From contig DULO01000031.1 in NCBI GenBank assembly GCA_012840345.1, forward strand, positions 26,421 to 90,420: 64,000 nt of DNA. The letters run 5' to 3'. Below, piece by piece: positions 2,474 through 43,736 of the stretch. Numbering within the stretch: the first letter of the stretch is position 1; every line of letters begins with the position of its first letter. Source of the stretch: Candidatus Fermentithermobacillaceae bacterium (GTDB taxonomy: Bacteria; Bacillota; Sulfobacillia; Fermentithermobacillales; Fermentithermobacillaceae). Both the position numbers and the translations under genes were made by a program. The notes beneath the pieces are model-generated. The model saw only the letters and a program-made list of their open reading frames with translations. It did not search any database and was not told where the DNA came from.

Positions 2474-2527
2474 AGGCGGGAAGGCGACGGGAGGCGGGTT
2501 CCCCCTCCTATCGCCTTCCGGCCTTTA
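2474..2527. terminator. GC-rich hairpin between convergent genes
   Basis: ggaaggcga-cgggagg ... cctccta-tcgccttcc inverted repeat between the stops of pspC and the 2525-3937 ORF. Confidence 0.6.
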
Positions 2528-3937
2528 TGCTTGCTCCCGGAATACCTCGAGGTTGGCCTCGGGGATGACCACGGTCTCCCCTGAGCCATCCAGCCGTACC
2601 ACGGCCACTTCCATCGGGCTTTCAGATTCCATGACCTTAAGTTCGGACGGAAGCTCTTCCACCGTCCCCCAAAGTCCGAAATAGGGCTCGCGGACACAGC
2701 GGACCTTGTCTCCCACTGTGAGGGAGACCGTCTCGTGCAAAGACACCTCAAAGGGCTCACCGAAGACGGGTTCTTGAGGAACGTCATCTCGCGGCGGCCC
2801 GCCTTCGCTAAACAGGATTTGGGGACGTATGGCCCCGGCGCGTATGTGGGTCGTTCCGTCCAGGGAAGCGACACGTCCGGCGTGAGAAGCCAGGAGCTCC
2901 CAAGCTCTCGGGCTCATAGGCAGCTCTCCAAACCCCTCTGTCACCACCACCGTGAGTCCGGGCTGTTCTTGCCCTGTCAACCCCACGTTTATCTCGTAAC
3001 CCAGGAACTGCACCAGGTCCAGGTTGTTGATCCCACCGACGACAAGGCCGGCGGCCCCGACGTCTCTCGCCTTGCGGAGCGCCTCCAGGCTCACCGAGCT
3101 TCCCGCCAAAAGGACGCTGCCCTTGTGGTTCTTGTCGATCCCGGCATCGCCGAGCGGTTCTGAGGGTCCGCCGCAAACCATGACAAGTTCCCCGTGCTTC
3201 TCGCCCCCTATGCCGAACACGCCCTCTAGGTACGCGCCCTGGGACTCCACGACGGCGCCGTAGTCAGGCAGGATCTCGGTCACTACCCCGGCGATATGGG
3301 CCAGAACCCTGGAAGGCTTGATCGGCCTAACAACCGTGATTGTGCCGGTCTTGGTGCATATCTTCTCGACCACGCCGCCCATGGGCGTGTAGACGTAGTC
3401 CACTCCCGCCTCGCCGATGAGGGGATTTACGACTGCCGAAGCCAACGCCTGCCCTTCGTACACCGTGTCGCCTTCCTTGACGTTGGTGTACATCCGGATC
3501 ATGGACGGCCATACCTTGAGTTTCTCCGCCACGTTCATTACGACAACCGGCTTGGACGACCTCGGGTCCTCCCTGATGACGACCCTGCCTTGGATCCTCG
3601 ATATCATCTCCACGATCCCGTCGCACGGGGCCTTGACATCAAAGATTTCCGACCAGAACCTCTTCTGGTGCCTGGCGATGGCCTGACCTTTGGTTACTTT
3701 GTCGCCAACTTTGACCAGCAGGACTTCATCCACCAGTTGAGGGGTGAGCCGCATGCGAAGTTCCGAGTTGAGGTCGATCACCCTGGGACTGCCCCGCACA
3801 AACTCGGTCTTGGCGATAACCGTCTCCGGGGTAACCAAGTCTCCCGGCTTAACCAGCACGTCCCCCGGCATGTTCAGCCTGCGCGCCTTTCTGAGCCTGG
3901 CGCGCGGCACTATTTTCGTGTTACAGGCGACGGCCAT
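2525..3937 (-). CDS. uncharacterised GlmL-associated protein: two barrel-sandwich-hybrid (lipoyl-like) repeats, alpha/beta core, C-terminal KOW/SH3-like domain
   Basis: LVKVGDKVTKGQAIA..KAPCDGIV and VKEGDTVYEGQALA..TPMGGVV repeats; VVTEGFG; C-terminal VGDKVRCVREPYFGLWGTV..IPEANLE; no signal peptide. Confidence 0.7.
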   Translation of the reverse strand: MAVACNTKIVPRARLRKARRLNMPGDVLVKPGDLVTPETVIAKTEFVRGSPRVIDLNSELRMRLTPQLVDEVLLVKVGDKVTKGQAIARHQKRFWSEIFDVKAPCDGIVEMISRIQGRVVIREDPRSSKPVVVMNVAEKLKVWPSMIRMYTNVKEGDTVYEGQALASAVVNPLIGEAGVDYVYTPMGGVVEKICTKTGTITVVRPIKPSRVLAHIAGVVTEILPDYGAVVESQGAYLEGVFGIGGEKHGELVMVCGGPSEPLGDAGIDKNHKGSVLLAGSSVSLEALRKARDVGAAGLVVGGINNLDLVQFLGYEINVGLTGQEQPGLTVVVTEGFGELPMSPRAWELLASHAGRVASLDGTTHIRAGAIRPQILFSEGGPPRDDVPQEPVFGEPFEVSLHETVSLTVGDKVRCVREPYFGLWGTVEELPSELKVMESESPMEVAVVRLDGSGETVVIPEANLEVFREQA

Positions 3938-3953
3938 GTCACAAAACCTCCTC

Positions 3954-5750
3954 TCACGAAAGGCTGTCCGCGAACATGCTTTCAGGGTAGGCGTCCATCG
4001 CCTTGGCCCACCTCTTTAAGGCCATAACTCTCCTGCGGTTATCCTCTGGCAAGGATAACGGCCTCCCTCTCCCGTCGAGGATAAGGCCTACGATTCCTCC
4101 GGAAACGTTCGCCGTAACCGGTCTGCCCGGCCCGTTTCCGACATCGAAACCTCTCTTCGGGACGACCGTAACCGGAGCGGTGGTCTTGGGAGGAAGCGGT
4201 ATGACGCGAATCTCACCCGCCTCTATCGCGTAGGACGATTCCTCCATCTCAACCCTGGCGATGGACGAACCGGGCTGGGATGAATGGCCTGAAGGGGCGA
4301 TAACCGTTCCAAGCTCCACCAGCGCTTCAGCGGACATGAGCTCGTTAACGGTCTCAGGTTCGGAATCCATGAGGACGCCCAAATGCGGGAGGAGAAACTG
4401 GCTGTCCACCGCCAGTTCCGTGATGCCTAATGGTTGTAGGGCGTCCATCATCATTAGTGCCGCTTGTGCCCGTCTAGGAGCGTAACTCAACACGCCGCCC
4501 GAACCGATGATGAGCCCGGTCTTCATGAGGTCCACGAGGGTCGCTCCCGTGCCCAGCTGGTTGAAGACGTCCCCTACTTCTCTTTTCTGCTGGATGCCCT
4601 TTAGGTCTCTTATCAGGGAACAGTGGTGGTCCAAAGAAAGGCGCAAAGCTTCTCTGGCCACGGCCTGCTCAAATACCAGGTCTCTCATGGTCTGAGGCAA
4701 AGTGGTGGGCCTGATCATCTTGTTAAAACCCCAGTTGCGTACCGAGTTTTCGTCAGTCTCCCACGGAATCCACCTCAAGACCGACTCCACTTTTGCCTCC
4801 GCCAAGACGTTAGCCAAGCTGTAGGACATTCCCAAGTTGGCCGAGACTGTCCTGAAGAACTGGCCGGATATCACCGAAAATACGTCGGTGGTAGCCCCGC
4901 CAACGTCTACCCCCAAGACGTCGAGGCCGCGGGCCTTTGCCAGGCGGGTCAAGACATCTCCCACCGCGACCGGCGTCGGCTTGATCTTGCCGCCGGTCCA
5001 GGAAGCCAGGGTCTTGTACCCCGGAGCGCGCATCATGACGTGCTCCAGAAACAACCGGTGAATCTCTTCCCTTGCCGGCCCCAGCACCTCCGTCTCCAAG
5101 CTTGGGCGTATGTTGTCTGTCACGCTAAGGTCCAGCGCGTCGCCTATGGCCTCCTCAACGTATCCCCTGGCGTCGAGGTTTCCGGCGTAGATGACGGGGA
5201 TCTTGAAGTCCTTTCCGAACCTGGCTTCGGGGTTGGCCATTGCGATGTATTCAGCCATGGCGGCGACGTCAGAGATGTTGCCTCCGTCGGTACCGCCGGT
5301 CACCAGAATCATGTCCGGACGCACTTTCCGGATGATGTCTATCCGCTCCATGAGCACCCTGTTGTCGTCCAGAGACAGGATATCGGACACAATGGCTCCC
5401 GCCCCCAAGGCCGCCCTGTGGGCGGATTCGGCGGTCATGGTTTTAACCAGCCCGGTAACCAGCATCTGGAGCCCGCCGCCCGCGGAAGATGTCGCCACAA
5501 AAACATCGGTGCCGTCTTCATGGTGGGAAGGAAGGATCAGCCTGGACCCGTCCAAAAGTCTCCTGCCGGTCCTCCTCTCAAGCTTTGCCAAGGCGTTCCT
5601 AAGGCCTATCATGACGTCCAGGTCCGGAGCCTCGACGGTGGTGGGCGCGACGGCCTTCCCAAGGACGCGCCAGCCTTCTTTCCCTCTCTCAAAGAGAACC
5701 GCCTTGGTCGTAGTGCTGCCGACGTCCGCCGCGATGATCCGGTTCCTCAT
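3954..5750 (-). CDS. long GlmL/MutL(PF13941)-family ASKHA ATPase with intact motifs
   Basis: Phosphate-1 DVGSTTTK, SSAGGGL, GGTDGG, YAGN, phosphate-2 DVGGATTDVFS, RTVSANLG, adenosine IGSGGVL; extra C-terminal domain ending LDGRGRP. Confidence 0.85.
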   Translation of the reverse strand: MRNRIIAADVGSTTTKAVLFERGKEGWRVLGKAVAPTTVEAPDLDVMIGLRNALAKLERRTGRRLLDGSRLILPSHHEDGTDVFVATSSAGGGLQMLVTGLVKTMTAESAHRAALGAGAIVSDILSLDDNRVLMERIDIIRKVRPDMILVTGGTDGGNISDVAAMAEYIAMANPEARFGKDFKIPVIYAGNLDARGYVEEAIGDALDLSVTDNIRPSLETEVLGPAREEIHRLFLEHVMMRAPGYKTLASWTGGKIKPTPVAVGDVLTRLAKARGLDVLGVDVGGATTDVFSVISGQFFRTVSANLGMSYSLANVLAEAKVESVLRWIPWETDENSVRNWGFNKMIRPTTLPQTMRDLVFEQAVAREALRLSLDHHCSLIRDLKGIQQKREVGDVFNQLGTGATLVDLMKTGLIIGSGGVLSYAPRRAQAALMMMDALQPLGITELAVDSQFLLPHLGVLMDSEPETVNELMSAEALVELGTVIAPSGHSSQPGSSIARVEMEESSYAIEAGEIRVIPLPPKTTAPVTVVPKRGFDVGNGPGRPVTANVSGGIVGLILDGRGRPLSLPEDNRRRVMALKRWAKAMDAYPESMFADSLS

Positions 5751-5767
5751 CTCTCACACCTCCGTCG

Positions 5768-6916
5768 CTAAAAACCTCCACAAAGTCCGCATTGAGCGCA
5801 GGATGGGTTGGAAAACGCGTATATGGCCTTGTTGTTCAAGAGTTGGTCGCAGGTCGCGTTTCTCGTGAGTCTCAAGGGAAGGAGCGCGCCTCCGGCCAAC
5901 GCCAGCGCTCCCATAACCGCCGACGCGGGAAAAGCCGCGGCCGGAACCGGCGCGGAAAGCCCGAGCTTGCACAGGGCAAACCCAATGACGAGCCCAACCG
6001 GGATCCCCGCGTACCCCAGGTACCAGCATTCAGCCAGGACGAGCCTCCTCAAGTCCGGCCGTGTGGCGCCAATCACTTTTAAGATACCCAACGCGCGTTT
6101 TCGTCCCAGGAAGGATACGGCTAGCACGCACGACACCGCGGACGCCGCCGTAAGGGCTACCATGACCGACACCGCCTGCCAGGGCAGATATGCTCTTAGC
6201 GCTGCCTTTCTGACGATGTGCCGGGTAAAACCATCCATGAACACCTTGGCTCCGGGATAGCTTCTGGACAGTTTGATGACCCGGGACAGGACGACGCTCG
6301 GGTCTCCCGTAACGTCAAAGGCGATCCCCGAAAGGTTTTCATGGCCTAGCGAGTCCGTCGATACCCATGCCCACCCCTCCGGATACTCACCTTCCGGCAG
6401 GTATTCACCGGTAGACCGGACCGTCCAGGTGCCTAACAAGCTCCCAGTGTCCGCGTCCCACACCTCAAGGCTTGAGCCCTCGCCGGCTTCTTTGGCCAAC
6501 GCCGGGCCGCACAGGAGGGTCCCCCTTTCCACCGAATCCAGGGCTCCGAGTACGAACAACGGCCCCAGCCGGGTGTCGGCGTTTACCCAAGGAAACCTCC
6601 TCAAGTTCGCGATGCCTTCGAAGCCCTCGGCTTCTTCCAGGGCCGAGACCGCTTCCTCGGCTGAGTCAAATATGATAATGGCTCCGGCAGGCAAGGACGG
6701 GGTAGCGACCTCTCTAGCCGCCGCGTCGCCGTTTTGAGAGACCATACAGACTACGGCCATGGAAGCCGCCACAGTAAGCGCCACTGACAAAGCCACAACA
6801 GCCGCCGCGCCGATCTCCCGCCTCAAGCGCCTCTTAGACATCAGCCTGGCCATCGACCAAGACAGCGCGGGCCGCAACCTCTCAGCCTGGGGGAGAAGCG
6901 CTCTACTTTTTGGCAT
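5768..6916 (-). CDS. FtsX/MacB-type ABC permease with C-terminal CxxCxxC tail
   Basis: N-terminal TM, extracytoplasmic domain, RKRALGILKVIGAT..LRRLVLAE FtsX signature, three C-terminal TMs; ends SCAQCGLCGGF. Confidence 0.8.
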   Translation of the reverse strand: MPKSRALLPQAERLRPALSWSMARLMSKRRLRREIGAAAVVALSVALTVAASMAVVCMVSQNGDAAAREVATPSLPAGAIIIFDSAEEAVSALEEAEGFEGIANLRRFPWVNADTRLGPLFVLGALDSVERGTLLCGPALAKEAGEGSSLEVWDADTGSLLGTWTVRSTGEYLPEGEYPEGWAWVSTDSLGHENLSGIAFDVTGDPSVVLSRVIKLSRSYPGAKVFMDGFTRHIVRKAALRAYLPWQAVSVMVALTAASAVSCVLAVSFLGRKRALGILKVIGATRPDLRRLVLAECWYLGYAGIPVGLVIGFALCKLGLSAPVPAAAFPASAVMGALALAGGALLPLRLTRNATCDQLLNNKAIYAFSNPSCAQCGLCGGF

Positions 6917-7610
6917 TCAGGACCTTCCTCTCGACGATCTCGCCGTCGGACAGGCGGATAAGCGTATCCGCGTAGTCCAAAAAACCGTCCTCGTGGGTAA
7001 CCACCACAAAGGTCTGTCCTTCCTCTTGGTTGAAGCGCTTAAACAGCTTCATTATCTCCTGGGACATCTTTGAATCCAGGTTTCCGGTAGGTTCGTCGGC
7101 CAGCACGATGGAAGGCCTGGGAGCCAGCGCCCGGGCTATGGCGACTCTCTGCTGCTCACCGCCGCTAAGCTCCACCGGGTAATGGTTCGCCCGGGCCGTC
7201 AACCCGGTAACCTCAAGAAGATGCATGACCCGGGACATGATGTCCCGCTCGTCCATCCGGGCTAGCCTCATGGGCATTCCGATGTTCTCGGCCGCGGTAA
7301 GTTCGGGCAAGAGGTTGAAGAACTGGAACACGATCCCCAACTCGCGGCGCCTCATCACCGCCAGGTCGTCCTCGCTCATTCTGGAGTACTTTCGGCCGTT
7401 TAGGAGGACCTCCCCGTGGGTGGGCCGGTCTATTCCGCCGAGTATGTTCAAGAGAGTGCTCTTGCCTGACCCGGACGGACCCATGATGACGACGAACTGT
7501 CCCCTCTCCACCTCAAGCTCTACGTTGGACAAGGCGAACAAGCCGTCGCCTACTGCATAGAACTTCGAGAGTTCGTGGCACGCGAGGATGGGTCCATGCC
7601 ATTCATTCAC
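6903..7610 (-). CDS. ABC ATP-binding protein, LolD/MacB type
   Basis: GPSGSGKST, VFQFFNL, LSGGEQQRVAIARAL, ADEPTGNLD. Confidence 0.95.
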   Translation of the reverse strand: MNEWHGPILACHELSKFYAVGDGLFALSNVELEVERGQFVVIMGPSGSGKSTLLNILGGIDRPTHGEVLLNGRKYSRMSEDDLAVMRRRELGIVFQFFNLLPELTAAENIGMPMRLARMDERDIMSRVMHLLEVTGLTARANHYPVELSGGEQQRVAIARALAPRPSIVLADEPTGNLDSKMSQEIMKLFKRFNQEEGQTFVVVTHEDGFLDYADTLIRLSDGEIVERKVLNAKK

Positions 7611-9054
7611 GCTTCAACACCTCCGCGCTGGGAACCCGCGCCGCCCACAGACCTACCGCCGTACCCAGGGCCAACGATATTCCCAAAGACATGCCGAAGA
7701 CCGAGATGAAGTCTATGAACGTAAGTTTGATCCACTCGGCGGCCGTAATCTCTGAGGCCAAGAGCGACCACAACGAAAGGACTTTTGCCGCTAAGAACCC
7801 TATGGCTGCTCCCGCGGCCGCGACGTATCCGACAATAGTCAGCACGTAGACCACGACATCTTTGCCTGTGGCGCCAATAACCCGTAAGAGGCCTATCTTT
7901 CTCTTCTGCTGGACCAGCATGATGTAGGAACTCCCGGCCACGATAACGCCGGAAAGCATAAAACCCTGAACCTGAAGAAGCCCGCCGGCGTCGAGCCCTT
8001 GGAACCTAAGAGCTGACCCCGATACCTGGAGTTTCTTGAGTTCAGGCACGGGGCAGACCTGAAAACCTTCTCCCAACTTCTCTTGAATCCCGGACGCTAT
8101 CGCCTTTGCCTCGGACATGCGGTCAACCGATATCAGGAGCTCATAGGTAGGCAGTTGGTTCAAATCCACAGCCGCCTGGGTTTGAGCCAGGATCTCCTGA
8201 AACGTCTCTTTGGTAACGAAAACCTCCGGCCTATCCCAAAAGCGCGCCTCTTCGCCGGGTGCCGGGAACTCGGGCAAAGCGGTGGCATCAGGTTCCAGTA
8301 CCTGGTTGGTGTTCACCCGGTACTTGCCGGATACTTCAAGCACAACCGAAGCCCCGTTGTCCCAATCCAGCCCGAGCCCGAAAGCACCCCCAACAAGTCG
8401 CGCGGGGTCTTTGGAAGAAGGCGCGGGGTTCACGACCAACCGCGGCACTCGAACCGGAACAGACGAGCCTACGAGGTTGTACTCAAGTCCTCCGAAGTTA
8501 GGGAAGAGAGCCTCCATTCCGGAGCCGGCCGCAGGCCCAGGATACTCGCCTTCCACGATGAAGCGGGCCATAGAAAGGGGAAAGCTCTCAGCATCCAAAG
8601 CGTCTCTCGCTCTTAGAATGGCCTGGACCGAACCCACCAAGCACGGCAAGGATACATAAGGTTCGACACGGGTTACGCCGGGGACGTCTTTGATCAGGTC
8701 CATTACTTCGCGTGGGTCAAAGGCGCGCCAACCTAAAGACCCTTCCGATATATAGCCTTCTTGAGAAAGCCGGTGAAAGTAGTAGAGCGCGTGGGACTGC
8801 CAATCCCGTCCCTCCCACGGTTTCACAGTGAGGTTTGCGCCGTTTCGGGACTCTACCCGGCTTGACAGTGGCAAGACGACCAGGTCGCCTCCGATAAACG
8901 CCCTTTCCGCCTGGCCAACGCCCCACGGATAACCCCGGGGGATCATGTGGGACACAACAAGCATCCACGCGGCAAGAGCGGTCGCGGCCAAAGCGACGCC
9001 GGTCCTGGTCCAGTTTCGCTTTATCTCGTTTCTGCCGAGGCGGATTAGGTCCAA
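7603..9054 (-). CDS. FtsX/MacB-type ABC permease
   Basis: N-terminal RNWTRT + TM, large extracytoplasmic domain, QKRKIGLLRVIGAT, C-terminal AARVPSAEVLKRE; TTG start at 9054 after GGAGGG. Confidence 0.8.
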   Translation of the reverse strand: MDLIRLGRNEIKRNWTRTGVALAATALAAWMLVVSHMIPRGYPWGVGQAERAFIGGDLVVLPLSSRVESRNGANLTVKPWEGRDWQSHALYYFHRLSQEGYISEGSLGWRAFDPREVMDLIKDVPGVTRVEPYVSLPCLVGSVQAILRARDALDAESFPLSMARFIVEGEYPGPAAGSGMEALFPNFGGLEYNLVGSSVPVRVPRLVVNPAPSSKDPARLVGGAFGLGLDWDNGASVVLEVSGKYRVNTNQVLEPDATALPEFPAPGEEARFWDRPEVFVTKETFQEILAQTQAAVDLNQLPTYELLISVDRMSEAKAIASGIQEKLGEGFQVCPVPELKKLQVSGSALRFQGLDAGGLLQVQGFMLSGVIVAGSSYIMLVQQKRKIGLLRVIGATGKDVVVYVLTIVGYVAAAGAAIGFLAAKVLSLWSLLASEITAAEWIKLTFIDFISVFGMSLGISLALGTAVGLWAARVPSAEVLKRE

Positions 9055-9236
9055 AGCCCCACCCTCCAATCACACCAATTCCGTATTCTTGGAGGATCTC
9101 CTTCTCGACAATTGCTGACATTGACATTCTACGAGTTTACAAGGGAAAAGGTGCCCACAGAGACTTGCTCGCAGCAATGCGCGGGGTGTCTTGAGGCACA
9201 ATGCCTCGGCTCCGTTTACGCCAGCAATCTTGCGAG

Positions 9237-9265
9237 GTAATACTGTACTGCTACGTAAACGTCAA
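9237..9265 (-). promoter_or_regulatory. putative sigmaA promoter for the downstream permease module
   Basis: TTGACG(9265-9260)-17 nt-TATTAC(9242-9237) on the minus strand. Confidence 0.5.
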
Positions 9266-9279
9266 GCGTTGGTGACAGG

Positions 9280-11247
9280 CTATGTTATCTTGGAGCGGGC
9301 CCACCGGCCCCTCTCGAGCATCACGCCGGCAAGGTCGTCTCCTTGGGAGTACAGGTGCTCTCCATAGGCCTCACAAGCGAGGCCCTCCAGGAAGGGATCG
9401 GAAAACAAACGGGAATCCCTGATAGCTTCCGCGAAATGGCGGTTGGCGGCGACAACGCTTCCGAAACGAGCCTCGGCCTCCCCCAAAGCCACGGAGGACA
9501 CTACTCTGCCTTCTTCATCGCCCAGGGCGTGAAGCGACGTCCACGCCGCGCGCGCCCTTTCCAGAAGGTCCTCTCCATTCTCTTGAAGCCTTAGCGCGCA
9601 CCTTACGGCCCACGCCTCGGCCAAGCACTCTCGCTCTCTATCGCTAAGTCCCCGGGAAAACGCCTTCACAAGCTCCAGTTGCCGCAGGGCTTCGGCGTAC
9701 GCTCCTTCACGGAACCTGACCTTGGCGATTTGCAGCCTCGTCCACGCCTCGGTGGAAGTGTCCCTACCTTCCGAAAGAGCCAGAGCCCTGTTCAGCGAAG
9801 TGACGCTCCTGCCAAGTTCGCCTTTTCGGTAAAAGGCGCGCCCGAGCCCCAATAGAGCGTGAGCCATTAGCGACTGATCTCTTAGTTTTGTAGCTTCGCT
9901 TAGGGCTTCCTCGAACTCCGCCTGGGCGTTTGTGAGCTGCCCTTTCTTAAGGAGTAAGTACGCGAGATCTATACGGGCCCGGGCGGTAAGGCCCGTGTCT
10001 CCCTCTGAAGCTCTAAGGGCTTTCTCCAGGGCTTCTTGGGCTTTTTCAGGCATTCCGAGCCTGGAGTAGAGGCCGCCGGCCACCGACAACCCCATGACAA
10101 GGTCCCTTCGCTTGGAGGTCCTTTCCCAATACGACAGGTTTCGTTCCTGGTATACCAGAGCCTCCTCTAAGTCTCCCAAGTTCGAGCATACGGTGACCAT
10201 CATTTGATACGCTACGGACCTTTGGTCGGGATCTGTCCTTAGGACGGCGTCCAGCGAAAGGACTACCTTCAACCTTTCTTTGGCTACTCTCCACCATCCG
10301 AGGCTCAAAGACTTCTCCGCCGACGCTCTGTACCAGGTCCTCGCCTTGGACAAGTCCTGGGCATCCAAATACAGCTGGGCCAAGATATCCGGGTCCGTAT
10401 CGGGGTACTTCTCCTCAAGGTACCGGGCCAGCGAACAAAGAGCCTCACGACGCGGTTCCAGCGGCACCCACGTCTTTAGGACTGAAGCCGGCACCCTTTC
10501 CGAGAGGCGGACGACCCCGTCCCCCGAAGACGTGGGGACGAGGGAAGCTATCCCTGCCGTGGACAGAGATTCCAACGCCCTAAGCACGCACTGGACGGGC
10601 AAGGCCGTGGCCGCCTCAAGGTACTCCAAAGGCACCTCCCGAAATATGCCTGCCAAACTGCCGAGAACCGCTCCCACGCGCCTTTCGGGAACTCCCAATT
10701 GGTGCTCGGGAATAAGAGCGCGGCCCTCCTGTTCCATCGTCTCGCCTTTAGCGGCCGCCTTGGACGCTTGCCACCGCGCGATAGTGTTCCGCAAGACGCT
10801 GCCCAGGCGGCGTACCTCGGCGTCAGTGAGGGTGTTGACCTCACGGTAAAAAGCGGCGACTAGATAGGGGTCGGTAAGATTCAGGGAGTTCAGGAAGTCT
10901 TCAAATGCCCCTGTATCCCGGACGTCCACGGGCTCTTGAAGCCCGTGCGTCTCCCGCGACCCGACATGCCCCGCCTCTTGGGGCTCAGGAGCGGTCGTGA
11001 CGTCTGAAACCTCCTCGTCCAAAGGCATGTAGAGGCTGGACACCGACACGTCAAGCGCCAAAGCCAGAGCGTCCTTGTGATGATCGCTCAGGTTTTCCCT
11101 CTCGCCCGAAAGGATCAATGAAAAATACGAGGGACTCAGGCCGGCCATCTCGGCCAGCTCCTTTACTTTCAATCCCCGTTCTTTCATGAGCCTCTTTATG
11201 TTGTTGCGGAAAAGCTCGCTTGACTTCATCGGCATCGCCGGCATCAC
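9280..11247 (-). CDS. XRE-family HTH regulator with STAND-like winged-helix/arm and TPR sensor region
   Basis: NIKRLMKERGLKVKELAEMAGLSPSYFSLILSGER..LALALDVSVSSL (HTH_3); multiple TPR-like repeats; no Walker A motif seen. Confidence 0.8.
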   Translation of the reverse strand: MMPAMPMKSSELFRNNIKRLMKERGLKVKELAEMAGLSPSYFSLILSGERENLSDHHKDALALALDVSVSSLYMPLDEEVSDVTTAPEPQEAGHVGSRETHGLQEPVDVRDTGAFEDFLNSLNLTDPYLVAAFYREVNTLTDAEVRRLGSVLRNTIARWQASKAAAKGETMEQEGRALIPEHQLGVPERRVGAVLGSLAGIFREVPLEYLEAATALPVQCVLRALESLSTAGIASLVPTSSGDGVVRLSERVPASVLKTWVPLEPRREALCSLARYLEEKYPDTDPDILAQLYLDAQDLSKARTWYRASAEKSLSLGWWRVAKERLKVVLSLDAVLRTDPDQRSVAYQMMVTVCSNLGDLEEALVYQERNLSYWERTSKRRDLVMGLSVAGGLYSRLGMPEKAQEALEKALRASEGDTGLTARARIDLAYLLLKKGQLTNAQAEFEEALSEATKLRDQSLMAHALLGLGRAFYRKGELGRSVTSLNRALALSEGRDTSTEAWTRLQIAKVRFREGAYAEALRQLELVKAFSRGLSDRERECLAEAWAVRCALRLQENGEDLLERARAAWTSLHALGDEEGRVVSSVALGEAEARFGSVVAANRHFAEAIRDSRLFSDPFLEGLACEAYGEHLYSQGDDLAGVMLERGRWARSKIT

Positions 11248-12405
11248 CTAACCCCGGTCTCTCAGAAGGATATTTGATACGGGAACCAAGAGCGTCTCAC
11301 CGGTTTCCGTCGCCACCTTAGCCCCCGGTAACAGGAGGTCGTTTTCGAGCTTCAACTCAGGCAGGATCTCCACCACCGTGCCTTCTTTCACGGCGGTTGT
11401 GAGGCCTAGGACGCTGACCCTGTCCCCAAGTCCGAGCTCTCCCAGGCGGCATACGGGTTTTTCGGCCTCCTTGGCGACGGCTCCGCCGTTCAGCGGGATG
11501 ACGACCGCGGGCTCATCCGACCCGTTTCCGCCTCCGTCTATGTAGACCGGGTTGCCCTCGCTCTCGGCCAAAAGGGCGAACGCTTCGCCGCCCATGGGCG
11601 AGTCTCCATAGCCCTCGGTTACCACCAATGCCGGTACAATCTCGCTGGGAGAAGGCTCCAAATCCCGGTTCTTGGCGTCCCTTGCCCAATATCTGGCCAG
11701 GAACTCGTCCCAGTCCAAAGACCCTGCAAGGTCCGAGTACCACTCAAATAACCCGCGGCTCACGCTGCCCGCGATGATGCCGGAAACCCTGAACCTTAGG
11801 CAAGCTTCTAGGACTTCTTTGGACACGGAACGGCCGGCAACTATCACTTTCCCCGCGTCGTCCGCCGTGAAGTCCCTGGCGCTTAACTTGTCCGACGGAG
11901 TCTTCGCCTTCATGGAAAGCACCCCCGCCCGACCGTAGCCGGCACCAACAGAAGCCTTAACCAGGTTGCCGTACGTTCTGACCCACACTCCCCTGGCTTC
12001 GTCGGTTTTCTCGACGATTCCGGGAAGGCGGCAATACAAGCTCACCGGCGCTTCCTTGATGGCAATCGAGCCTATGGAAGGAATGAGGGCTACCACTTCC
12101 CCATCACAAGGCGCTGTGTACTCGGTGTATCCCAGCCCAAAGAAGTATGAGTAGTACGCCAGCACCTCGCCGCGCTTTACCTTTTGGCCTTCTTGGACCA
12201 GAACCGTCGCCGAAAAACCTTCTCCCGACGATTCCACCCTGACTTGCCTGAGCCTTCTCCGAGAAGCGTACGTGCCTGCTAGTGTATCCCACGTGACCTC
12301 CGACCCGACGTCTACTTGGGGCTCGCCGATGGAACCAAAGGCCCTTAAGCGCACAATTGGGGTATTGCGGGCAACTCGGGGTTCGTTGAGGGCGTAAAGC
12401 GTCAT
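11248..12405 (-). CDS. paralog of the 2525-3937 GlmL-associated hybrid/KOW protein
   Basis: LVQEGQKVKRGEVLA..TAPCDGEV; VVTEGYGDSPM..F.LL; C-terminal LGDRVSVLG..GTVVEI..VPVSNI. Confidence 0.7.
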   Translation of the reverse strand: MTLYALNEPRVARNTPIVRLRAFGSIGEPQVDVGSEVTWDTLAGTYASRRRLRQVRVESSGEGFSATVLVQEGQKVKRGEVLAYYSYFFGLGYTEYTAPCDGEVVALIPSIGSIAIKEAPVSLYCRLPGIVEKTDEARGVWVRTYGNLVKASVGAGYGRAGVLSMKAKTPSDKLSARDFTADDAGKVIVAGRSVSKEVLEACLRFRVSGIIAGSVSRGLFEWYSDLAGSLDWDEFLARYWARDAKNRDLEPSPSEIVPALVVTEGYGDSPMGGEAFALLAESEGNPVYIDGGGNGSDEPAVVIPLNGGAVAKEAEKPVCRLGELGLGDRVSVLGLTTAVKEGTVVEILPELKLENDLLLPGAKVATETGETLLVPVSNILLRDRG

Positions 12406-14132
12406 TGACCTCTCCCCCTCTCCCAGCCTGATAGAACTTGCTCGGGGAAGACGCCAAGGTTCCTGTACCAGCCTATGATTTCACGGGGAGAGATTCTCTC
12501 CAGGGTTCTAAGCTGCGGCCTGGGGCGTCCGTCCACATAAATCCGGGAAAAGCCGGGCGGAAGATCCCGCACGGTCTTTCGTCCGGGTCCCTCGCCCAAG
12601 TCTTCTTGGCGTGAAGGGTCCAACGTGATTTCCACGGCGGAACCATTTGCGATGGGAACTAACGTTATCTCGCCCATACTCACGGGCAGCTGCTCGTACG
12701 TCCCGTCCAATCTCGCCGAGGCCCATCCCGCGCCGACGCGGTCTCTGTCTTCGCCGGGGGCGACCAGGACGGCCAGAGGCAAGAGACTCTCCAGTATGTT
12801 TGCGCTTCCGGAAGGAAGCAGGCCGGCTACCTGCAGCGCGTTGCAAGTATCAAGGTAGACGCCCACGCCTCCCGCGACCTGCGCGCCGTCCATAACCAAA
12901 GACAGGACCGCTTCCCGGGAAAGGACCCGGGACAGGACGCCGGTCACGACTATCCGCCTCAAGGTAGGCATCTTCAAGAGCGTATCCCCGCCCGAGACTT
13001 CCACTTGGAAAGTCTCCCCTACCTGTCTTTGCCGGTGCACGCCGCGAAGTTCTATGGCGGTGGCCTTATGCTCGGCGATACCTTCCCTTATGGCTTCTTT
13101 CCAAACCGCGAGAAAGACCGATAACTCGTTCCAAGTGGTGGGCAAAACGTGCGGCCGGAGTACCAGGTTGCCTATGAAATCGCCCAGGTTTTCCGCCATT
13201 TGAGGGTGAGGAAGCCATTTGGCCACTTTGTTGGGGTTTACCTTGGCGACCGGGGTCACGGTTCTGGTGAACACTCCCTTGATGCCGGAGAAGACCTGCA
13301 CCGCGTCGCCGTCCAGGGACAGGCCCAAGACGTTCTCGCCCGTTTCCTCGTAGAGCCCCTCGAAAGCAAGGCCCGCCGCGTACCCCGACGGGAAGACTTC
13401 CGGCAAACCCAGCTTGCCTAGACCTTGGAACTTAGGGTCAGAGCGCACGTTTTCCGAAAACGAGCCTACGACCGCGTCGCGCGCTGAAGCTAAGTGCTCT
13501 TCCTCGAGCTTTGCCCTAACGTTGTCGGCCCAGATTATCTCGATATCCCCCAGGATCCTGGCCACTTCCTCCCGGGCTTCTTGAGAACCCGCGTAGACCA
13601 GGGGAATCCTGTCATCGCTCCATCCTTTCTTGGGCAACCCTTTGGCTAGGACTCTGGCGATGTTGAGGATCTGATGGGTTCCGGACTCCATAATTTCCTC
13701 GTCTACCCCGCCGGCCATGACGGCGACGGACACATCCTGGCGGCGCAAGTCCGAAATCCTCTCGAAATCCTGGCGGCCGTCATCGACGCAAACCAGATCG
13801 GTCACAGTGGCGCCGGCCAACAAAGCGGCTCTCTTGGCGGATTCCCCCGAGATGCCCTTGACTACTCCCGCGCATACCGCCTTGGGTTCCCCGCCTGCGC
13901 TAAGGGTCACCATGACGCCTTCATTCTCGTAAGAGGACTTGTCCTCTGACATTCGGGATCCGATGACGTCCAGTACCTCGCCCAACCCCAAAGTTCGTTC
14001 ATCTTTGCTCGCCGGCGGCGGAGTGGGACAGGAAACGCGCTCTAGCTGGACAATCCTGCCGCCCTCGATAGCCAGGGCGCGGGCTTCGGTAACCGTACTG
14101 CCTACGTCTATATGAAAGATACTCTTGGTCAT
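12402..14132 (-). CDS. GlmL/MutL-family ASKHA protein, degenerate paralog
   Basis: Start MTKSIFHIDVGSTVTE (ATG 14132, GGGAGG RBS); SAGG, AGGVD, YAGS retained; phosphate-2 replaced by LSLDGDAVQVFS; same C-terminal DLGEGPGR..VDGRPRP domain. Confidence 0.75.
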   Translation of the reverse strand: MTKSIFHIDVGSTVTEARALAIEGGRIVQLERVSCPTPPPASKDERTLGLGEVLDVIGSRMSEDKSSYENEGVMVTLSAGGEPKAVCAGVVKGISGESAKRAALLAGATVTDLVCVDDGRQDFERISDLRRQDVSVAVMAGGVDEEIMESGTHQILNIARVLAKGLPKKGWSDDRIPLVYAGSQEAREEVARILGDIEIIWADNVRAKLEEEHLASARDAVVGSFSENVRSDPKFQGLGKLGLPEVFPSGYAAGLAFEGLYEETGENVLGLSLDGDAVQVFSGIKGVFTRTVTPVAKVNPNKVAKWLPHPQMAENLGDFIGNLVLRPHVLPTTWNELSVFLAVWKEAIREGIAEHKATAIELRGVHRQRQVGETFQVEVSGGDTLLKMPTLRRIVVTGVLSRVLSREAVLSLVMDGAQVAGGVGVYLDTCNALQVAGLLPSGSANILESLLPLAVLVAPGEDRDRVGAGWASARLDGTYEQLPVSMGEITLVPIANGSAVEITLDPSRQEDLGEGPGRKTVRDLPPGFSRIYVDGRPRPQLRTLERISPREIIGWYRNLGVFPEQVLSGWERGRGQ

Positions 14133-14133
14133 C

Positions 14134-14838
14134 TCAGCCCTCCCGTGCCATTCCTCCGTCGTATACGCGGGTGATGCGCCCGTCGAGCATCTCCACAACC
14201 CGGTGCGCCCACCTGGTGATCGAAGGATCATGTGAAACCACGACAAAGGTCTGGCCTCTTTCTACATTGAGTCTGTGGAAGATCTCGCCGATCTCCGACG
14301 AAGTCTTGGAGTCCAGATTCCCGGTTGGCTCGTCGGCCAGCACTATCGCGGGTTGGTTGGCCAAGGCCCTGGCGATAGCCACTCGCTGCTGCTCCCCTCC
14401 GGATAGCTCTAAAGGCTTGTGATCTTGCCTTTGGCCTAGGCCTACTTGAACCAAGAGCTCTCTCGCCCGTTCAGTCATGGCCTTCTTGCTCATTCCGCCA
14501 AACCTCATGGGCAACATCACGTTCTCGAGCGCTGTGAAGTGGGCTATGAGGTTAAAGAACTGGAACACGAACCCGACCTTGTTCCGCCTGATCCGGGCCA
14601 GACCGCTTTCGGAAAGCTGGGAGTATCTCTGGCCGTCCAGGATGACATCCCCGCTCTGGGGCCTGTCTAACCCTCCCAAGAGCCCAAGGAGCGTGCTCTT
14701 GCCGCTGCCCGAGGGGCCCATCAAAACGATGAATTCGCCGCGGTCCACTACCAGGTTCACGTCGTTGACCGCGTAGATTGTCTGTCCCAAGTGAAAGGAT
14801 TTCTTGAGGTTCACTGTCCTCAGGATAGGCTCATCCAA
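14134..14838 (-). CDS. ABC ATP-binding protein, LolD/MacB type
   Basis: GPSGSGKST, VFQFFNL, LSGGEQQRVAIARAL, ADEPTGNLD. Confidence 0.95.
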   Translation of the reverse strand: MDEPILRTVNLKKSFHLGQTIYAVNDVNLVVDRGEFIVLMGPSGSGKSTLLGLLGGLDRPQSGDVILDGQRYSQLSESGLARIRRNKVGFVFQFFNLIAHFTALENVMLPMRFGGMSKKAMTERARELLVQVGLGQRQDHKPLELSGGEQQRVAIARALANQPAIVLADEPTGNLDSKTSSEIGEIFHRLNVERGQTFVVVSHDPSITRWAHRVVEMLDGRITRVYDGGMAREG

Positions 14839-14901
14839 TGGGAATACCCCCGCGTGGTTACTAAGTGACGCTTTTCACTATCCCGGTAGTTACTTCTTCG
14901 C

Positions 14902-14987
14902 AGGACACCCATATCCTTTCCGAGAATGCTTCGGGAACAGTAGGATCCCCTGGATAAAGGAGGTTCCCGGCAGGATACGGGTGTCCT
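14902..14987 (-). other. long stem-loop, putative structured RNA element
   Basis: ~24-bp inverted repeat 14902-14926 / 14964-14987; two substitutions form G-U pairs on the minus strand. Confidence 0.6.
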
Positions 14988-36399: not shown

Positions 36400-37734
36400 C
36401 TACGACAGCCCCAATGACTTCGCTTTCTCGTCAATAGCGTCTTGAAGCGTAGGCCGGCCGATCTCCTGAAGTTCGTAGCGGACCCTGGTCCAGGGTTTGT
36501 CTATTTTGGCTATCCTGCTCAAGTCTATGGGCGTGGCCACTACTACCCCATCGCAAGGCGTCTTCCGGATCGTCTCTTCCAGGTCCCTCACTTGCCCCTC
36601 TCCGTATCCCATAGCAGGCAGCAAAGTGCCGATCCTGGGATAAGTCCGGTATGTTTCCAAGATGCTCTTTACGGCGTACTCCCTGGGATCCACCAGTGAT
36701 TCCGCTCTGTAACGTTTGGCGGCGACCACACCCGCGCCAAAGGTCATCTCCCCGTGGGTAAGCGTTGGCCCGTCCTCAATGACCAGCACTTTCTTTCCTC
36801 TGATAACCTCGGGGTTATCCACGAAAATGGGCGAAGCGGCTTCTACCACGATGGCGTCGGGATTAAGGGAATCGATGCTTTCCCTGACTCTCTCCACCCC
36901 GTCGGGCGACGCGGTGTCGACCTTGTTTATTACGATGATGTCAGCCATGCGCAGGTTAGTCTCGCCCGGATGGTAACGCTCCTCGTGTCCCGGGCGGTGA
37001 GGATCGACCAGTACGATGTGAATGTCGGGACGGTAGAACGGTATGTCGTTGTTGCCGCCGTCCCACAAGATGATATCGGACTCAGCTTCCACTCCCCGGA
37101 GTATCCGCTCGTAGTCGACTCCCGCCCATACGACCAGCCCCCGGTCAACTATGGGTTCGTACTCCTCTCGTTCCTCGATGGTGCACTTGTGGATGTCCAT
37201 GTCTTCATAGGTGGCGAATCTCTCCGCGGCTTGAGCCAGAAGGTCCCCGTAAGGCATAGGATGGCGGACGACCCCCACCTTACGGTTCTTGGAGACCAGG
37301 ATATCGGCGACCCTCCGGGTGGTCTGGCTTTTGCCAACACCGGTTCTCACGGCGGTCACCGCGATGACCGGCTTAGTCGACTTCAGCATGGTAGTCTTCG
37401 GGCCCATGATGCGGAAGTCGGCGCCGGCTGCCGCGCACATTGAAGCCTTGTGCATCACGTACTCGTGGGGTACGTCGCTGTACGCGAAGACTACCTCGTC
37501 AACATCATGGGAAGCGATTAGCCGGGGGAGGTCCGCTTCCGGGTAAATGGGAATGCCGTCCTCGTAACCGGGACCCGCCAGTTCCGGAGGGTACCTGCGC
37601 CCCGCTATGTCCGGGATTTGGGCCGCCGTGAAAAACAACACCCTGTAGTCAGGGTTCCCGCGGAAATACACGTTGAAGTTGTGGAAGTCCCTGCCTGCCG
37701 CCCCCATGATCGCGACCTTTTTGGGGTTCCCCAC
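36400..37734 (-). CDS. cDPG-synthetase-like P-loop protein, probable arginine synthetase (ArcE) family
   Basis: MGAAGRDFHNFN, AVRTGVGKSQT, RHPMPYGDL, CTIEEREEYE, WDGGNND, EDGPTLTHG, LPAMGY. Confidence 0.8.
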   Translation of the reverse strand: MGNPKKVAIMGAAGRDFHNFNVYFRGNPDYRVLFFTAAQIPDIAGRRYPPELAGPGYEDGIPIYPEADLPRLIASHDVDEVVFAYSDVPHEYVMHKASMCAAAGADFRIMGPKTTMLKSTKPVIAVTAVRTGVGKSQTTRRVADILVSKNRKVGVVRHPMPYGDLLAQAAERFATYEDMDIHKCTIEEREEYEPIVDRGLVVWAGVDYERILRGVEAESDIILWDGGNNDIPFYRPDIHIVLVDPHRPGHEERYHPGETNLRMADIIVINKVDTASPDGVERVRESIDSLNPDAIVVEAASPIFVDNPEVIRGKKVLVIEDGPTLTHGEMTFGAGVVAAKRYRAESLVDPREYAVKSILETYRTYPRIGTLLPAMGYGEGQVRDLEETIRKTPCDGVVVATPIDLSRIAKIDKPWTRVRYELQEIGRPTLQDAIDEKAKSLGLS

Positions 37735-37759
37735 TTTTCATTCCTCCTTGAAATCGGCT

Positions 37760-39748
37760 CTAACTGACCGCCCTCGTCTCTTCTGTCCTCGGGGTCTTGA
37801 CCCAGGCCTTGGGTTCTTTCCCCATAGACTTCAACACCAGCGCGCTGGTATATGGCACAGGGAACATGAACGCCGCCAAAGGCAAAAGGAACAATCCCAT
37901 GTAGACACAGAACCTGCCCAACCAGGAGTTGGGACAGCAGCTGTTGTCAAGATGAGCGCTGTACCTGCGAAACGCGTAGAAAGTGAACCCGAGATAGATG
38001 GCGGAAAACCCGCTCAGCATCCACTGTCCCGCCGCCGGCACAAGAGTGGCGTCCATAAGGTCCTGGTGGTGCAACACCATGGCTATTGGCGGCACAAAGG
38101 TGGCCAGTTGGTACAGGACCCACTCCAGCTGGCCCTTGATAATGAGACTCAGGCGCAGCCGTCGTTGGGCTGATCTCTCCACATCCTTATAGGTTAGGAC
38201 CTTGTCGACCACCTGAAGATGTCCGGTGCCCCACCTAAGCCTCTGGCGAAAGAAGGCTTTAAAAGTCGGAGGTGTCTGCTCTGATGACGAATAAGGAAGG
38301 TATTCGGGCCAGGCTCCTCTCAAGAGATAAGCTCTCGTCCCGAACTCAAGGTCTTCTGTGAGTACGTGACAGTCCCACCCTCCTACCTCTCTTAAGAGGT
38401 CGTGAGCTATGAAGACGTTGGTCCCGCCGACAAAAGGCAAGGTGCGGAACAGCCAAGGAAGGTACCAATCGTGGGCGACGGCCTGATACAGGGCGGCAAT
38501 GCGGCAGAAGGGCGTCATCTGGTAGAAGTTCCTTACCTGGAACACGGGGCCTTGCAAGACTCTTGACTTCTCGGGGTCCATCATTCTCCTGTAGCCCACA
38601 TATAGAAGGACATCCTTATGAGGCCTGCTCTCCGCGTCGTAGAACCCGACGACTTCGGTCCTGGGGTCCAGGTAGTTGATTCCCCAGTTCAAAGCCCTAC
38701 CCTTGGTGGACGGTACCGGTCTTCCCGTCTTTTTTCCGTTGAGAGCGCCGTCAAAGTCGTAGGGCACGACCACGTGCCTCACGGCCGGAACGCCTGGTTT
38801 TTGGGCGGCTTCCGAGGCGACTCTGTCCACCACTTCTTGGGTGGTAGGGTATAGATCCAAGAGAGCGTGGCGTATCTTATCCCGTATTTCGCCCGTCCTA
38901 GACGCCTTGCGGACGGCTTGGCACACCCGTTTGGCTATCAAGTCGGTCATCCGCCGGATGATGTCTTGAGTCAGGTCATGGTTCGCCTTGATTGTGTGCT
39001 GAATGGTCCTCCTTAAGATCTTCCGGCTCGATTCGTCGCAGATCTCGGAGTACGCCGCTATGACCGGCACGGCTACCGCCAAGCAAGCGGGATACAGCCT
39101 CTCGATGTCCAGTTCGGAAAGCCACGGACAAGTCTTTTTCAGTATGCCCTTGAGCCTCCCCGCCTGAGGGGCCCCGTGAGAAGCGAGTATGGCGATGCTG
39201 ATGCCTCTCACCACGGCGTGGCGTTCGAGCCCGGGAAGCAGATAGAGCTCGGACGCTCCCGACGGGTAGTCTTTTTGAAAGCCTTTGGACAGGTATTCCC
39301 TCAACGCGTACTCGGAGAGGCAGGATACTATAACGGCCCGGAGTTCCACCTCGTGTCTTGACCGGACTCCTTCCCTTTCCCCCGACAAGATCTCCACGGC
39401 CAAAGCCTCCAAGGCTTTACGGTCTTCTTGAGCCGCCAGGATCTCTTTTTCGTCGGTCACCACCATGACTTCGTAACGGCCTTGCGGGTACCGCAAGGAA
39501 AGCAAATGGTTGATTGTGTTTTCAATGACCAGGGATTCGTTTCGGGCCGGGACCATGATGCTGATAAAAGGAACGGGCCTACCCAGTGAAGCCGCCGTCT
39601 CTTCTATGAAGGCGGGCTTTAGAGTCGGCTTCCTATTCCAGTACTTTCGTTCGCTGTAGTGCTTCCAGACCAGAAACCTGGCAAATAACAAAAAGAACAC
39701 AAGATAAACCGCGTACGCGACGAGGTACAGAGTCTGGGCGGGCGTCAT
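37760..39748 (-). CDS. processive GT2 glycosyltransferase with large insertion
   Basis: VPARNE, VVTDE, KGRALN, YDAES, GGTN, LTEDLE, RQRLRW; N- and C-terminal TMs. Confidence 0.88.
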   Translation of the reverse strand: MTPAQTLYLVAYAVYLVFFLLFARFLVWKHYSERKYWNRKPTLKPAFIEETAASLGRPVPFISIMVPARNESLVIENTINHLLSLRYPQGRYEVMVVTDEKEILAAQEDRKALEALAVEILSGEREGVRSRHEVELRAVIVSCLSEYALREYLSKGFQKDYPSGASELYLLPGLERHAVVRGISIAILASHGAPQAGRLKGILKKTCPWLSELDIERLYPACLAVAVPVIAAYSEICDESSRKILRRTIQHTIKANHDLTQDIIRRMTDLIAKRVCQAVRKASRTGEIRDKIRHALLDLYPTTQEVVDRVASEAAQKPGVPAVRHVVVPYDFDGALNGKKTGRPVPSTKGRALNWGINYLDPRTEVVGFYDAESRPHKDVLLYVGYRRMMDPEKSRVLQGPVFQVRNFYQMTPFCRIAALYQAVAHDWYLPWLFRTLPFVGGTNVFIAHDLLREVGGWDCHVLTEDLEFGTRAYLLRGAWPEYLPYSSSEQTPPTFKAFFRQRLRWGTGHLQVVDKVLTYKDVERSAQRRLRLSLIIKGQLEWVLYQLATFVPPIAMVLHHQDLMDATLVPAAGQWMLSGFSAIYLGFTFYAFRRYSAHLDNSCCPNSWLGRFCVYMGLFLLPLAAFMFPVPYTSALVLKSMGKEPKAWVKTPRTEETRAVS

Positions 39749-39842
39749 GATGTCGGCTTCCACTCCCTTGTCGGTTAACGCTTTCTGTGCCCAACCAGTA
39801 TTGTTGCGCTTGCCGGATGGGGCTATGCGCCAGCGTAACCTC

Positions 39843-39880
39843 AAAAGGAAAGCGGTCCCTGTTCGGGACCGCTCCCAAAA
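39843..39880 (-). terminator. intrinsic terminator
   Basis: Minus strand gagcggtccc-gaaca-gggaccgct followed by TTCCTTTT. Confidence 0.7.
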
Positions 39881-39916
39881 GCCCTCTCAATATCCTTTCT
39901 GGAAGCCTACCGCCTC

Positions 39917-41239: not shown

Positions 41240-41277
41240 GAGAAACGCTCCTCCTCCGGTTATACTGGTCTTTTCTC

Positions 41278-42309: not shown

Positions 42310-42322
42310 GGCGCAACGCCTC

Positions 42323-43735: not shown

Positions 43736-43736
43736 G

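Follow-up and report, generated by a model that had tools for sequence, protein, structure and literature searches.

Background

Proteins of the PF13941 family are known from the company of B12-dependent mutases: GlmL/MutL belongs with glutamate mutase, which it reactivates as a chaperone according to PMC4682846, and Or-4 with D-ornithine 4,5-aminomutase. We examined a 64,000-nucleotide (nt) stretch from the assembly GCA_012840345.1 of a Candidatus Fermentithermobacillaceae bacterium (contig DULO01000031.1, positions 26,421 to 90,420; hereafter the window), in which a nine-gene locus encodes two long GlmL-type proteins (GlmL1 and GlmL2), a partner behind each (P1 and P2), two ATP-binding cassette (ABC) ATPases (ABC1 and ABC2), two permeases (permA and permB) and a regulator (XRE-TPR). 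GlmL1 has the PF13941 family and the ASKHA motifs in common with GlmL/MutL and Or-4. The long proteins differ from these in being about 130-150 amino acids (aa) longer, in scoring below the NF040745, TIGR01319 and NF040744 cut-offs, in having an obligate partner and no mutase nearby, and in occurring as several paralogues per genome, dead ones included.

The ABC genes also have described counterparts. LolCDE is a type VII (MacB-superfamily) complex that works by mechanotransmission (PMC10094684), and the locus likewise encodes two different FtsX-type permeases and a LolD-like ATPase. It departs from LolCDE in that its ATPases stay below the LolD cut-off, that permB ends in a Cys-rich or barrel-sandwich tail, that a cytoplasmic ASKHA pair is linked to it and that no LolA-like gene lies in this locus. 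FtsEX with FtsA in Escherichia coli, and FtsEX-CwlO with SweCD in Bacillus subtilis, join a type VII ABC complex to an actin-like protein and to accessory cofactors (PMC6705773), so that FtsEX/FtsA is a precedent for such an interaction. FtsEX, however, has one permease type, and FtsA, a distant fold relative of GlmL1 (TM 0.29), lacks a swivel/barrel-sandwich partner. A separate ftsE-like gene, judged by likeness only, appears to lie on contig C49 of the genome.

Two further groups are related by fold. The diol dehydratase reactivating factor DdrAB has the ASKHA ATPase fold in common with GlmL1 (E 2.7e-7), and its DdrA subunit joins the ATPase to a swivelling domain and remodels the client by subunit exchange. 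In the system described here, the ATPase and the swivel domain belong to separate polypeptides, which are sometimes joined end to end, and a membrane complex is the likely client. DdrA was not among the structural matches listed for the partner. The hydantoinase/oxoprolinase family (Apc, N-methylhydantoinase, acetone carboxylase) gave the best Foldseek matches of GlmL1, from which low TM-scores, a sub-threshold PF05378 match and the lack of a B subunit gene in the locus set it apart.

A long-GlmL/partner module serving membrane complexes was not found described in the literature searched, of which few subscription journals and no supplements formed part; an earlier reading of the window from its letters alone (the sequence-only reading) had likewise taken the unit to be undescribed. 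The novelty rests on this module, the ABC part being of the known type VII kind. The explanation that we tentatively favour, at a little under an even chance, is that GlmL1/P1 is an ATP-driven control module docking on LolCDE-like ABC complexes that handle peptides or wall peptides.

The long GlmL family

The genome (97.7% complete; closest named relatives Candidatus Fermentithermobacillaceae and other uncultured Bacillota) carries four PF13941 genes, i.e. a short Or-4 copy (44801-46144 of the window), GlmL1, GlmL2 and a third long copy on contig C101. The expected profile matches were obtained, PF13941 being passed by both long proteins (389 bits for GlmL1 and 131 for GlmL2, cut-off 27) and PF02687 by both permeases. 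The two are indeed longer than the short copy (598 and 576 aa vs 447) and align over their full length, including the extra C-terminal domain that they were said to share (29%). In GlmL1 the ASKHA motifs and the PF13941 match span residues 5-473. It lies below all NCBIfam GlmL cut-offs (NF040745, 233 against 475; NF040744, 215 against 600; TIGR01319, 173 against 204) and GlmL2 lower still; the short copy passes NF040744 (Or-4). Long forms are abundant, at least 8000 having been counted (8000 of the 8000 scored candidates), and databases label them 'glutamate mutase L' or 'methylaspartate mutase'.

These labels would fit long GlmL proteins that reactivate B12 mutases encoded elsewhere in the genome, an explanation that we consider very improbable. 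It has the family label, the chaperone role reported for MutL/GlmL (PMC4682846) and the presence of several B12 enzymes on other contigs on its side, and the short Or-4 too lies far from its likely OraSE genes on contig C9. The neighbourhood survey spoke against it: a partner was found in 37 of 72 long-GlmL loci, DUF6754 in 6 and the permeases considered here in 7, all from a single family, but a B12-binding domain in none, in what is a modest test given 1.14 Mb of sequence, many loci that end early and a home-made B12 profile built from six of the genome's own domains. In addition, the long proteins miss the three mutase-linked cut-offs and need a partner that short GlmL lacks. The window itself has no B12-binding or lysine/ornithine aminomutase gene anywhere, in keeping with the claim that no mutase accompanies the locus; the closest match to a B12-binding domain is in a radical-SAM gene beyond the window and scores below threshold. 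The short Or-4 stands with an ornithine racemase gene (43737-46144) without their mutase, OraSE-like genes being on contig C9.

The partner and its predicted complex with GlmL1

The partner is obligate for long GlmL, whereas short GlmL has none. Its family comprises 1833 clusters at 50% identity, and P2 matches the family hidden Markov model with E 1e-51. The model of P1 (predicted local distance difference test, pLDDT, 92.9) gave structural matches at domain level and none for the whole chain, and sequence searches of the PDB with the partner gave single-domain matches only. Full fusions of GlmL and partner occur in 3 of the best 150 partner representatives, and a fused cluster of 92 members is present in the Atlas.

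That the two proteins interact had been put forward, and complex modelling predicts a direct interaction, with the natural fusions as further backing. A model of GlmL1 residues 2-592 with P1 residues 1-395 scored 0.73 against 0.00 for the best control, on a scale whose mark for complexes was reached by 116 of 157 solved pairs and 2 of 215 mismatched pairs; contacts agreed between runs at 71% or more, and partner pLDDT was at least 79. The predicted interface (GlmL1 286, 305-318 and 334-348; P1 240-241, 304-319, 335-337 and 365-366) brings the best-conserved motifs of GlmL, together with residue 286 in its phosphate-2 loop, into contact with the swivel domain, R366 being among the residues involved. 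GlmL1 and P1 are therefore predicted to bind directly, with the swivel domain beside the ATP site. No His, Cys or Lys is conserved in the partner; those of its charged residues that are invariant lie together in the swivel domain, where the interface is predicted.

The best matches of this domain are the phosphohistidine domains of enzyme I of the phosphotransferase system (PTS; Z 9.4, root-mean-square deviation 2.6, 109 residues aligned) and of rifampin phosphotransferase (Z 8.6, 2.7, 106 aligned). Together with its predicted position near the ATP site, they would suit a PTS-like phosphorelay, in which the ASKHA kinase phosphorylates the swivel domain and the phosphate passes to the membrane complex or its substrate. 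We give this reading very little credence: in the alignment of 123 sequences His exceeds 50% at no position, and RraA matches equally well (Z 8.6), so that the fold shows no function.

The GlmL1 model (pLDDT 89.9) has an ASKHA fold. Its nearest folds by Foldseek are Apc, N-methylhydantoinase and acetone carboxylase, followed by sugar kinases, diol dehydratase reactivase, PilM and FtsA; all listed matches are ASKHA proteins, with TM-scores of 0.21-0.35, and sequence searches of the PDB found no relative of GlmL1. On this ground GlmL1/P1 might instead be a two-subunit ATP-dependent enzyme of hydantoinase/oxoprolinase type, acting on a small substrate, such as an N-acyl or D-amino-acid peptide, that it would receive at the membrane complex and activate or hydrolyse. 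The E values of the three best folds (1e-9 to 5e-8), weak matches to PF05378 (20.6 vs a cut-off of 25.2) and PF01968 (25.7 vs 22.9, on a 37-residue stretch) and the cluster of invariant charged residues agree with such an enzyme, as does the position of the canonical copy on C101, behind genes that by sequence likeness resemble those of D-peptide and gamma-glutamyl hydrolases. We nevertheless find it improbable, since the TM-scores to the three enzymes are just 0.26-0.35, metal-dependent or covalent catalysis would call for a conserved His, Cys or Lys, of which the partner has none, and dead copies, which arose at least twice (see below), have been kept, as would fit a structural or regulatory role. 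The partner matched no hydantoinase B family, and the locus holds no B subunit gene.

Genomes of the class hold up to eight GlmL/partner pairs, several of them standing alone. The third, canonical pair of the present genome (L012:9437-13601, contig C101) is accompanied by two small conserved genes and flanked by a toxin-antitoxin pair with D-peptide-hydrolase-like genes and by tsaE-tsaB-rimI-like genes; in many relatives this position holds two pairs in tandem. A 1332-aa frame at L169:10079-14077 has a long, partly hydrophobic N-terminal extension ahead of the GlmL domain and is followed by a partner gene.

Linkage of the pair to the permeases

Among 33 genes for Cys-tailed permB, which come from 40 regions selected among permease search matches, GlmL stands directly behind permB in 20 and within 7 kb in 6 more (26/33). 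Of 210 class genomes, 88 have the partner. DUF6754 was detected in 79 and the permB family in 59, and every one of these genomes is among the 88. A sample of 401 genomes of the phylum, which has three genomes in common with the class set, gave the partner in 36 and the permB family in 15, all of them within the 36.

The best evidence for docking is a P2-type unit fused at the predicted cytoplasmic end of permB', the permease of the second module type (permA'/permB'). In five Bacillota families outside the class, 16 of 16 permB' proteins end in a unit that matches the partner profile (E 8e-12 to 5e-4), to which Pfam was blind in 9 of the 9 scanned. These tail units score a mean of 66.5 bits with the P2 profile and 38.5 and 27.2 with the other two. 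Nine of them (cut by a pattern from 13 tried) nest within 12 P2 units with support 97 in a quick tree of 76 columns, apart from 3 canonical units (another 6 escaped the pattern) and 9 of the long-partner type. One 974-aa permB' (L225:7805-10729) has, besides the barrel-sandwich unit, an additional membrane segment and a zinc carboxypeptidase domain of the M14 family; genome G436 has a frame of similar length.

In two places (C39:76783-79656 and L145:9186-12064) an opine dehydrogenase gene is followed by one for a B12-binding protein, with weak MutE likeness in L145. Such opine dehydrogenase/B12-binding genes lie near permA-ABC1-permB without an adjacent GlmL in L144, L145 and L148.

Intact and degenerate copies

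The module was described as duplicated. Two copies are present, but they are not equivalent. GlmL1 retains its phosphate-1, phosphate-2 and adenosine motifs, while GlmL2 has neither the phosphate-1 lysine nor the phosphate-2 DxGG nor the adenosine motif, as in 9 of 9 aligned orthologues of the family, and the swivel domain of P2 has lost the TQIRAGxxRP loop. Among 90 complete, non-redundant pairs (3 incomplete ones were dropped), 64 retain both the ATP motifs and the partner loop, 18 have lost both, and 8 are discordant; this 82/90 concordance is a pattern rather than a statistic, the rows being related. Six of the discordant pairs are relocated copies with ATP motifs already altered, and one shows a conservative change. 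Because motifs and loop are kept or lost together, we infer that the partner's arginine loop works with the ATP site. GlmL2/P2 is a dead copy that likely keeps a docking role only.

Two separate degenerations appear in a quick GlmL tree, i.e. the old GlmL2 clade and a relocated GlmL1 copy. The latter moved with permA-ABC1-permB in four genera, the intact pair having stayed before hpt. Relocated permA-ABC1-permB-GlmL-partner copies, whose motifs and loop degenerated independently of GlmL2, were seen in L115-L119, L127, L129 and L132-L134.

Probable parts of two ABC complexes

Both ATPases keep the Walker A, signature, Walker B/D-loop and H-loop motifs. They miss the NCBIfam cut-off for LolD (307.75) with 251 and 242 bits, LolD still being the best NCBIfam match of ABC2. 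The genes of a MacB/LolCDE-type complex are thus present as had been read, although probably not those of a single complex, the likely permeases of the second ATPase being on contig C12. There (C12:32777-35460; L185:12778-15461) lies an orphan permA'/permB' pair without an ATPase gene. Hydropathy gives 1+3 membrane helices in permB and in both C12 permeases, and 1+2 above threshold in permA. permA is conserved across families, and ABC1 sits between permA and permB in most relatives.

ABC2 shares a clade with ATPases that adjoin permA'/permB' and GlmL2 in four genomes. Two of these (G061 and G063) have the order ABC2-permA'-permB'-GlmL2-P2, then permA-ABC1-permB; in the others (G087 and G088), ABC2-GlmL2-P2 is divergent from an adaptor-like gene with permA'-permB'. 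Since both C12 permeases group with the ABC2/GlmL2-linked permA'/permB' clade (local supports 93 and 99, in FastTree trees with long-branch warnings), ABC2 most likely serves the C12 pair, and the locus would hold parts of two ABC complexes. Two ATPases acting on one permease pair were considered and rejected on these trees, though in L135 and L136 ABC2 stands directly before permA.

In the tail of permB, an alignment of 29 members, selected because they have this tail, shows C373, C376, C379, G380 and G381 to be invariant in all 29. The CxxCxxCGG tail is predicted to be cytoplasmic and is a possible metal or Fe-S site; permB' of module 2 lacks it. Forms of permB of only 225-240 aa occur in two genera and the sister family (L121-L125, L130), and because they keep the Cys tail, most of the permB outer domain appears dispensable.

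DUF6754 membrane cassettes

The commonest membrane companion of the pair family is not the ABC complex but a four-gene membrane cassette headed by DUF6754, which adjoins GlmL/partner pairs in other phyla and in some Bacillota. The genome has 11 DUF6754 genes (contigs C1, C11, C18 with two, C50, C73, C75, C76, C98, C116 and C124), each heading a four-gene cassette without an ATPase of its own; partial cassettes lie on C38 and C58, and many relatives in the family have at least 11 DUF6754 genes. We scanned 52 of 85 listed co-directional neighbours, short or doubtful open reading frames (ORFs) being excluded. They include M14, three M20, M81 and S9 peptidases, two DUF885 proteins, four amidohydrolases, an amidase, a serine dehydratase and a beta-eliminating lyase, plus many unrelated genes; no background rate of peptidase neighbours was set beside them. 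Because peptidases and amidohydrolases adjoin them, the evidence points to cassettes that serve peptide or amino-acid uptake. Sequence searches of the PDB found no relative of the DUF6754 subunit or of the third cassette subunit. The idea that these two are inverted-topology homologues (probability 3.9%, E 0.011) is not claimed.

The pairs could accordingly be the shared motor of these cassettes, i.e. of a new ATP-driven peptide or amino-acid importer with one energiser and many substrate modules, with the ABC genes as no more than co-regulated neighbours or a later addition. In the class, none of the 79 genomes with DUF6754 lacks the partner, the 11 cassettes here lack an ATPase, their neighbours include the peptidases, DUF885 proteins, amidohydrolases, amidase and amino-acid lyases just listed, and the one complete relative is described in PMC10215811 as a spore-forming fermenter of peptides and amino acids. 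We judge this explanation unlikely, though it is the strongest competitor. The third, canonical pair on C101 is available for that job, many cassette neighbours are unrelated and proximity to peptidases comes without a background rate. Nor does a cassette motor explain why GlmL1/P1 travels with permA-ABC1-permB across families or why a P2-type unit is fused to permB'.

Gene organisation and neighbourhood

All nine ORFs, which the sequence-only reading had placed in one co-directional series, were confirmed on the minus strand with the order, spacing and lengths it gave (Table 1). Genes within modules are separated by anything from a 14-nt overlap to a 17-nt gap. The start of permA at 9054 is a TTG behind a GGAGG site (the first start of the ORF finder is 9069), which leaves 225 nt between XRE-TPR and permA. 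The nine-gene arrangement is not due to chance, because gene order is kept in relatives.

Table 1. Genes and candidate promoters of the locus (window positions)
Feature	Position	Strand	Description
ABC2	14134-14838	-	LolD/MacB-type ABC ATPase, module 2; PF00005, intact motifs
GlmL2	12402-14132	-	Long GlmL-type ASKHA protein, 576 aa; predicted pseudo-ATPase; PF13941 131 bits
P2	11248-12405	-	Partner: one barrel-sandwich unit, swivel domain without TQIRAGxxRP loop, KOW-like end
XRE-TPR	9280-11247	-	Regulator, 655 aa; HTH_3/HTH_26, TPR_12, TPR_MalT-like
permA	7603-9054	-	FtsX/MacB-type permease, PF02687; large predicted extracytoplasmic domain (hydropathy)
ABC1	6903-7610	-	ABC ATPase, module 1; PF00005, intact motifs
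permB	5768-6916	-	FtsX/MacB-type permease, PF02687; CxxCxxCGG C-terminal tail
GlmL1	3954-5750	-	Long GlmL-type ASKHA ATPase, 598 aa; intact nucleotide motifs, C-terminal beta domain; PF13941 389 bits
P1	2525-3937	-	Partner: repeated barrel-sandwich units, swivelling beta/beta/alpha domain with TQIRAGxxRP-type loop, KOW/SH3 domain
Sigma-H-type promoter candidate AGGA-N17-GAAG	14893-14917	-	For ABC2-GlmL2-P2-XRE
Sigma-H-type promoter candidate AGGA-N17-GAAT	9078-9102	-	For permA-ABC1-permB-GlmL1-P1

Elsewhere in the window, a family-2 glycosyltransferase gene has on either side a P-loop GTPase gene of weak CobW/MeaB likeness (36400-41290), and an AmmeMemoRadiSam system (41278-43822) has its radical SAM gene next to a LigB/Memo-like plus AMMECR1 fusion.

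Regulation

A promoter had been read into the gap before permA. The size of the gap holds, but a sigma-70 scan found no promoter in its 225 nt (2 sites in the 13.3 kb vs 2.8 expected, i.e. chance level); a sigma-H-type site is present instead. A terminator scan of the locus also stayed at chance level. The genome has a sigH gene (TIGR02859, 362 bits vs a cut-off of 294.8), and AGGA-N17/18-GAAT was taken as the sigma-H consensus. The AGGA-N-GAAT spacing peaks at 17 and 18 (26 and 26 of 1799 upstream regions, vs 4-12 for any other length; the 1868 coding controls gave 1 and 3). The permA site (9102-9078) is one of 48 strict sites among the 1799 regions, others of which precede the C101 operon, Or-4 (about 85 nt upstream), two DUF6754 cassettes, several peptidases and an hpf-like gene. 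Upstream of ABC2, at a distance of 57-112 nt, the window and each of the 6 family relatives examined have a relaxed site (background 203/1799, 11%), a pattern noticed after the fact and one that alone shows no spacing peak; before permA a relaxed site is rare (3 of 39 copies in relatives, plus L013). Both halves of the locus are thus preceded by candidate sigma-H-type promoters. In RNA runs the locus is present only in contigs that are evenly covered over both strands and across gaps, which is no evidence for expression or co-transcription.

XRE-TPR was taken for a dedicated regulator, which it is not: it occurs in 9 of 40 fetched regions, is missing from otherwise complete loci (L126, L018) and is an optional part. 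It has the XRE helix-turn-helix and TPR array of RRNPP proteins and also resembles MalT-type TPR proteins; at 655 aa it is longer than typical RRNPP members. The motif TTGC(T/G)G, a possible operator, occurs three times in the gap (9055-9279); one or more copies precede permA in 9 of 9 regions that have XRE-TPR vs 3 of 31 without it, the motif having been chosen after the fact.

Proposed mechanism

In the explanation that we favour, the barrel-sandwich arm of the partner in GlmL1-P1 would dock on the cytoplasmic side of permA-permB-ABC1, and the P1 swivel domain is predicted to sit on GlmL1 next to the ATP site. The invariant arginine loop may sense or trigger hydrolysis, which would be coupled to movement of the barrel-sandwich arm, and the ATPase cycle could thereby switch, assemble or reset the membrane complex, much as reactivase chaperones of the ASKHA fold do for enzymes. 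GlmL2/P2 would keep docking only, for the second complex of ABC2 and the C12 permease pair, and a similar GlmL/partner pair likely serves the DUF6754 membrane cassettes. Under sigma-H, in stationary phase, the complexes may work at the outer face with peptides or wall peptides as substrates; this is the weakest step, substrate and direction being speculative. From the mutase-independent machine first suggested, mutase independence, the pair and the ABC link are retained, and the activation, modification or delivery of a substrate is not.

Several points weigh against this explanation. While anatomy, folds, motifs, fusions and co-occurrence were observed as such, the contact between pair and ABC complex is our reading of gene linkage and tail fusion; barrel-sandwich units are common and the tail tree is short. 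The linkage has gaps as well, with 7 of the 33 Cys-tailed permB loci lacking GlmL and partner in the fetched stretch, the permeases reaching just one family among the 72 long-GlmL loci, and 10 of 10 loci from the five families outside the class showing neither GlmL nor partner within 12-20 kb. Dependence is one-way, 29 of the 88 partner-positive class genomes lacking the permB family at E 1e-30, and the co-occurrence counts overstate, since kin are not independent. In several genera the ABC-linked GlmL1/P1 copy is degenerate and the intact copy stands alone elsewhere. Finally, the ABC complex has its own ATPase and no need for a second motor, and the closest solved folds to GlmL1 are enzymes rather than chaperones.

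A broader formulation, to which we attach a clearly smaller likelihood, would make long GlmL and its partner a general-purpose ATPase module of actin fold, fitting into membrane machines that are unrelated to one another. It would energise DUF6754 four-subunit peptide importers (at least 11 per genome) and dock, active or dead, on type VII ABC complexes to switch them, linking peptide uptake to wall-peptide processing at the outer face under sigma-H.

Conclusions

The locus makes the question testable, as it offers one pair that is intact and one that is dead, an interface predicted to include a candidate arginine loop, a fusion found in nature that points to the docking site, and a candidate sigma factor. 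For the family at large, the labels 'glutamate mutase L' and 'methylaspartate mutase' mislead metabolic reconstructions of uncultured digester and subsurface bacteria.

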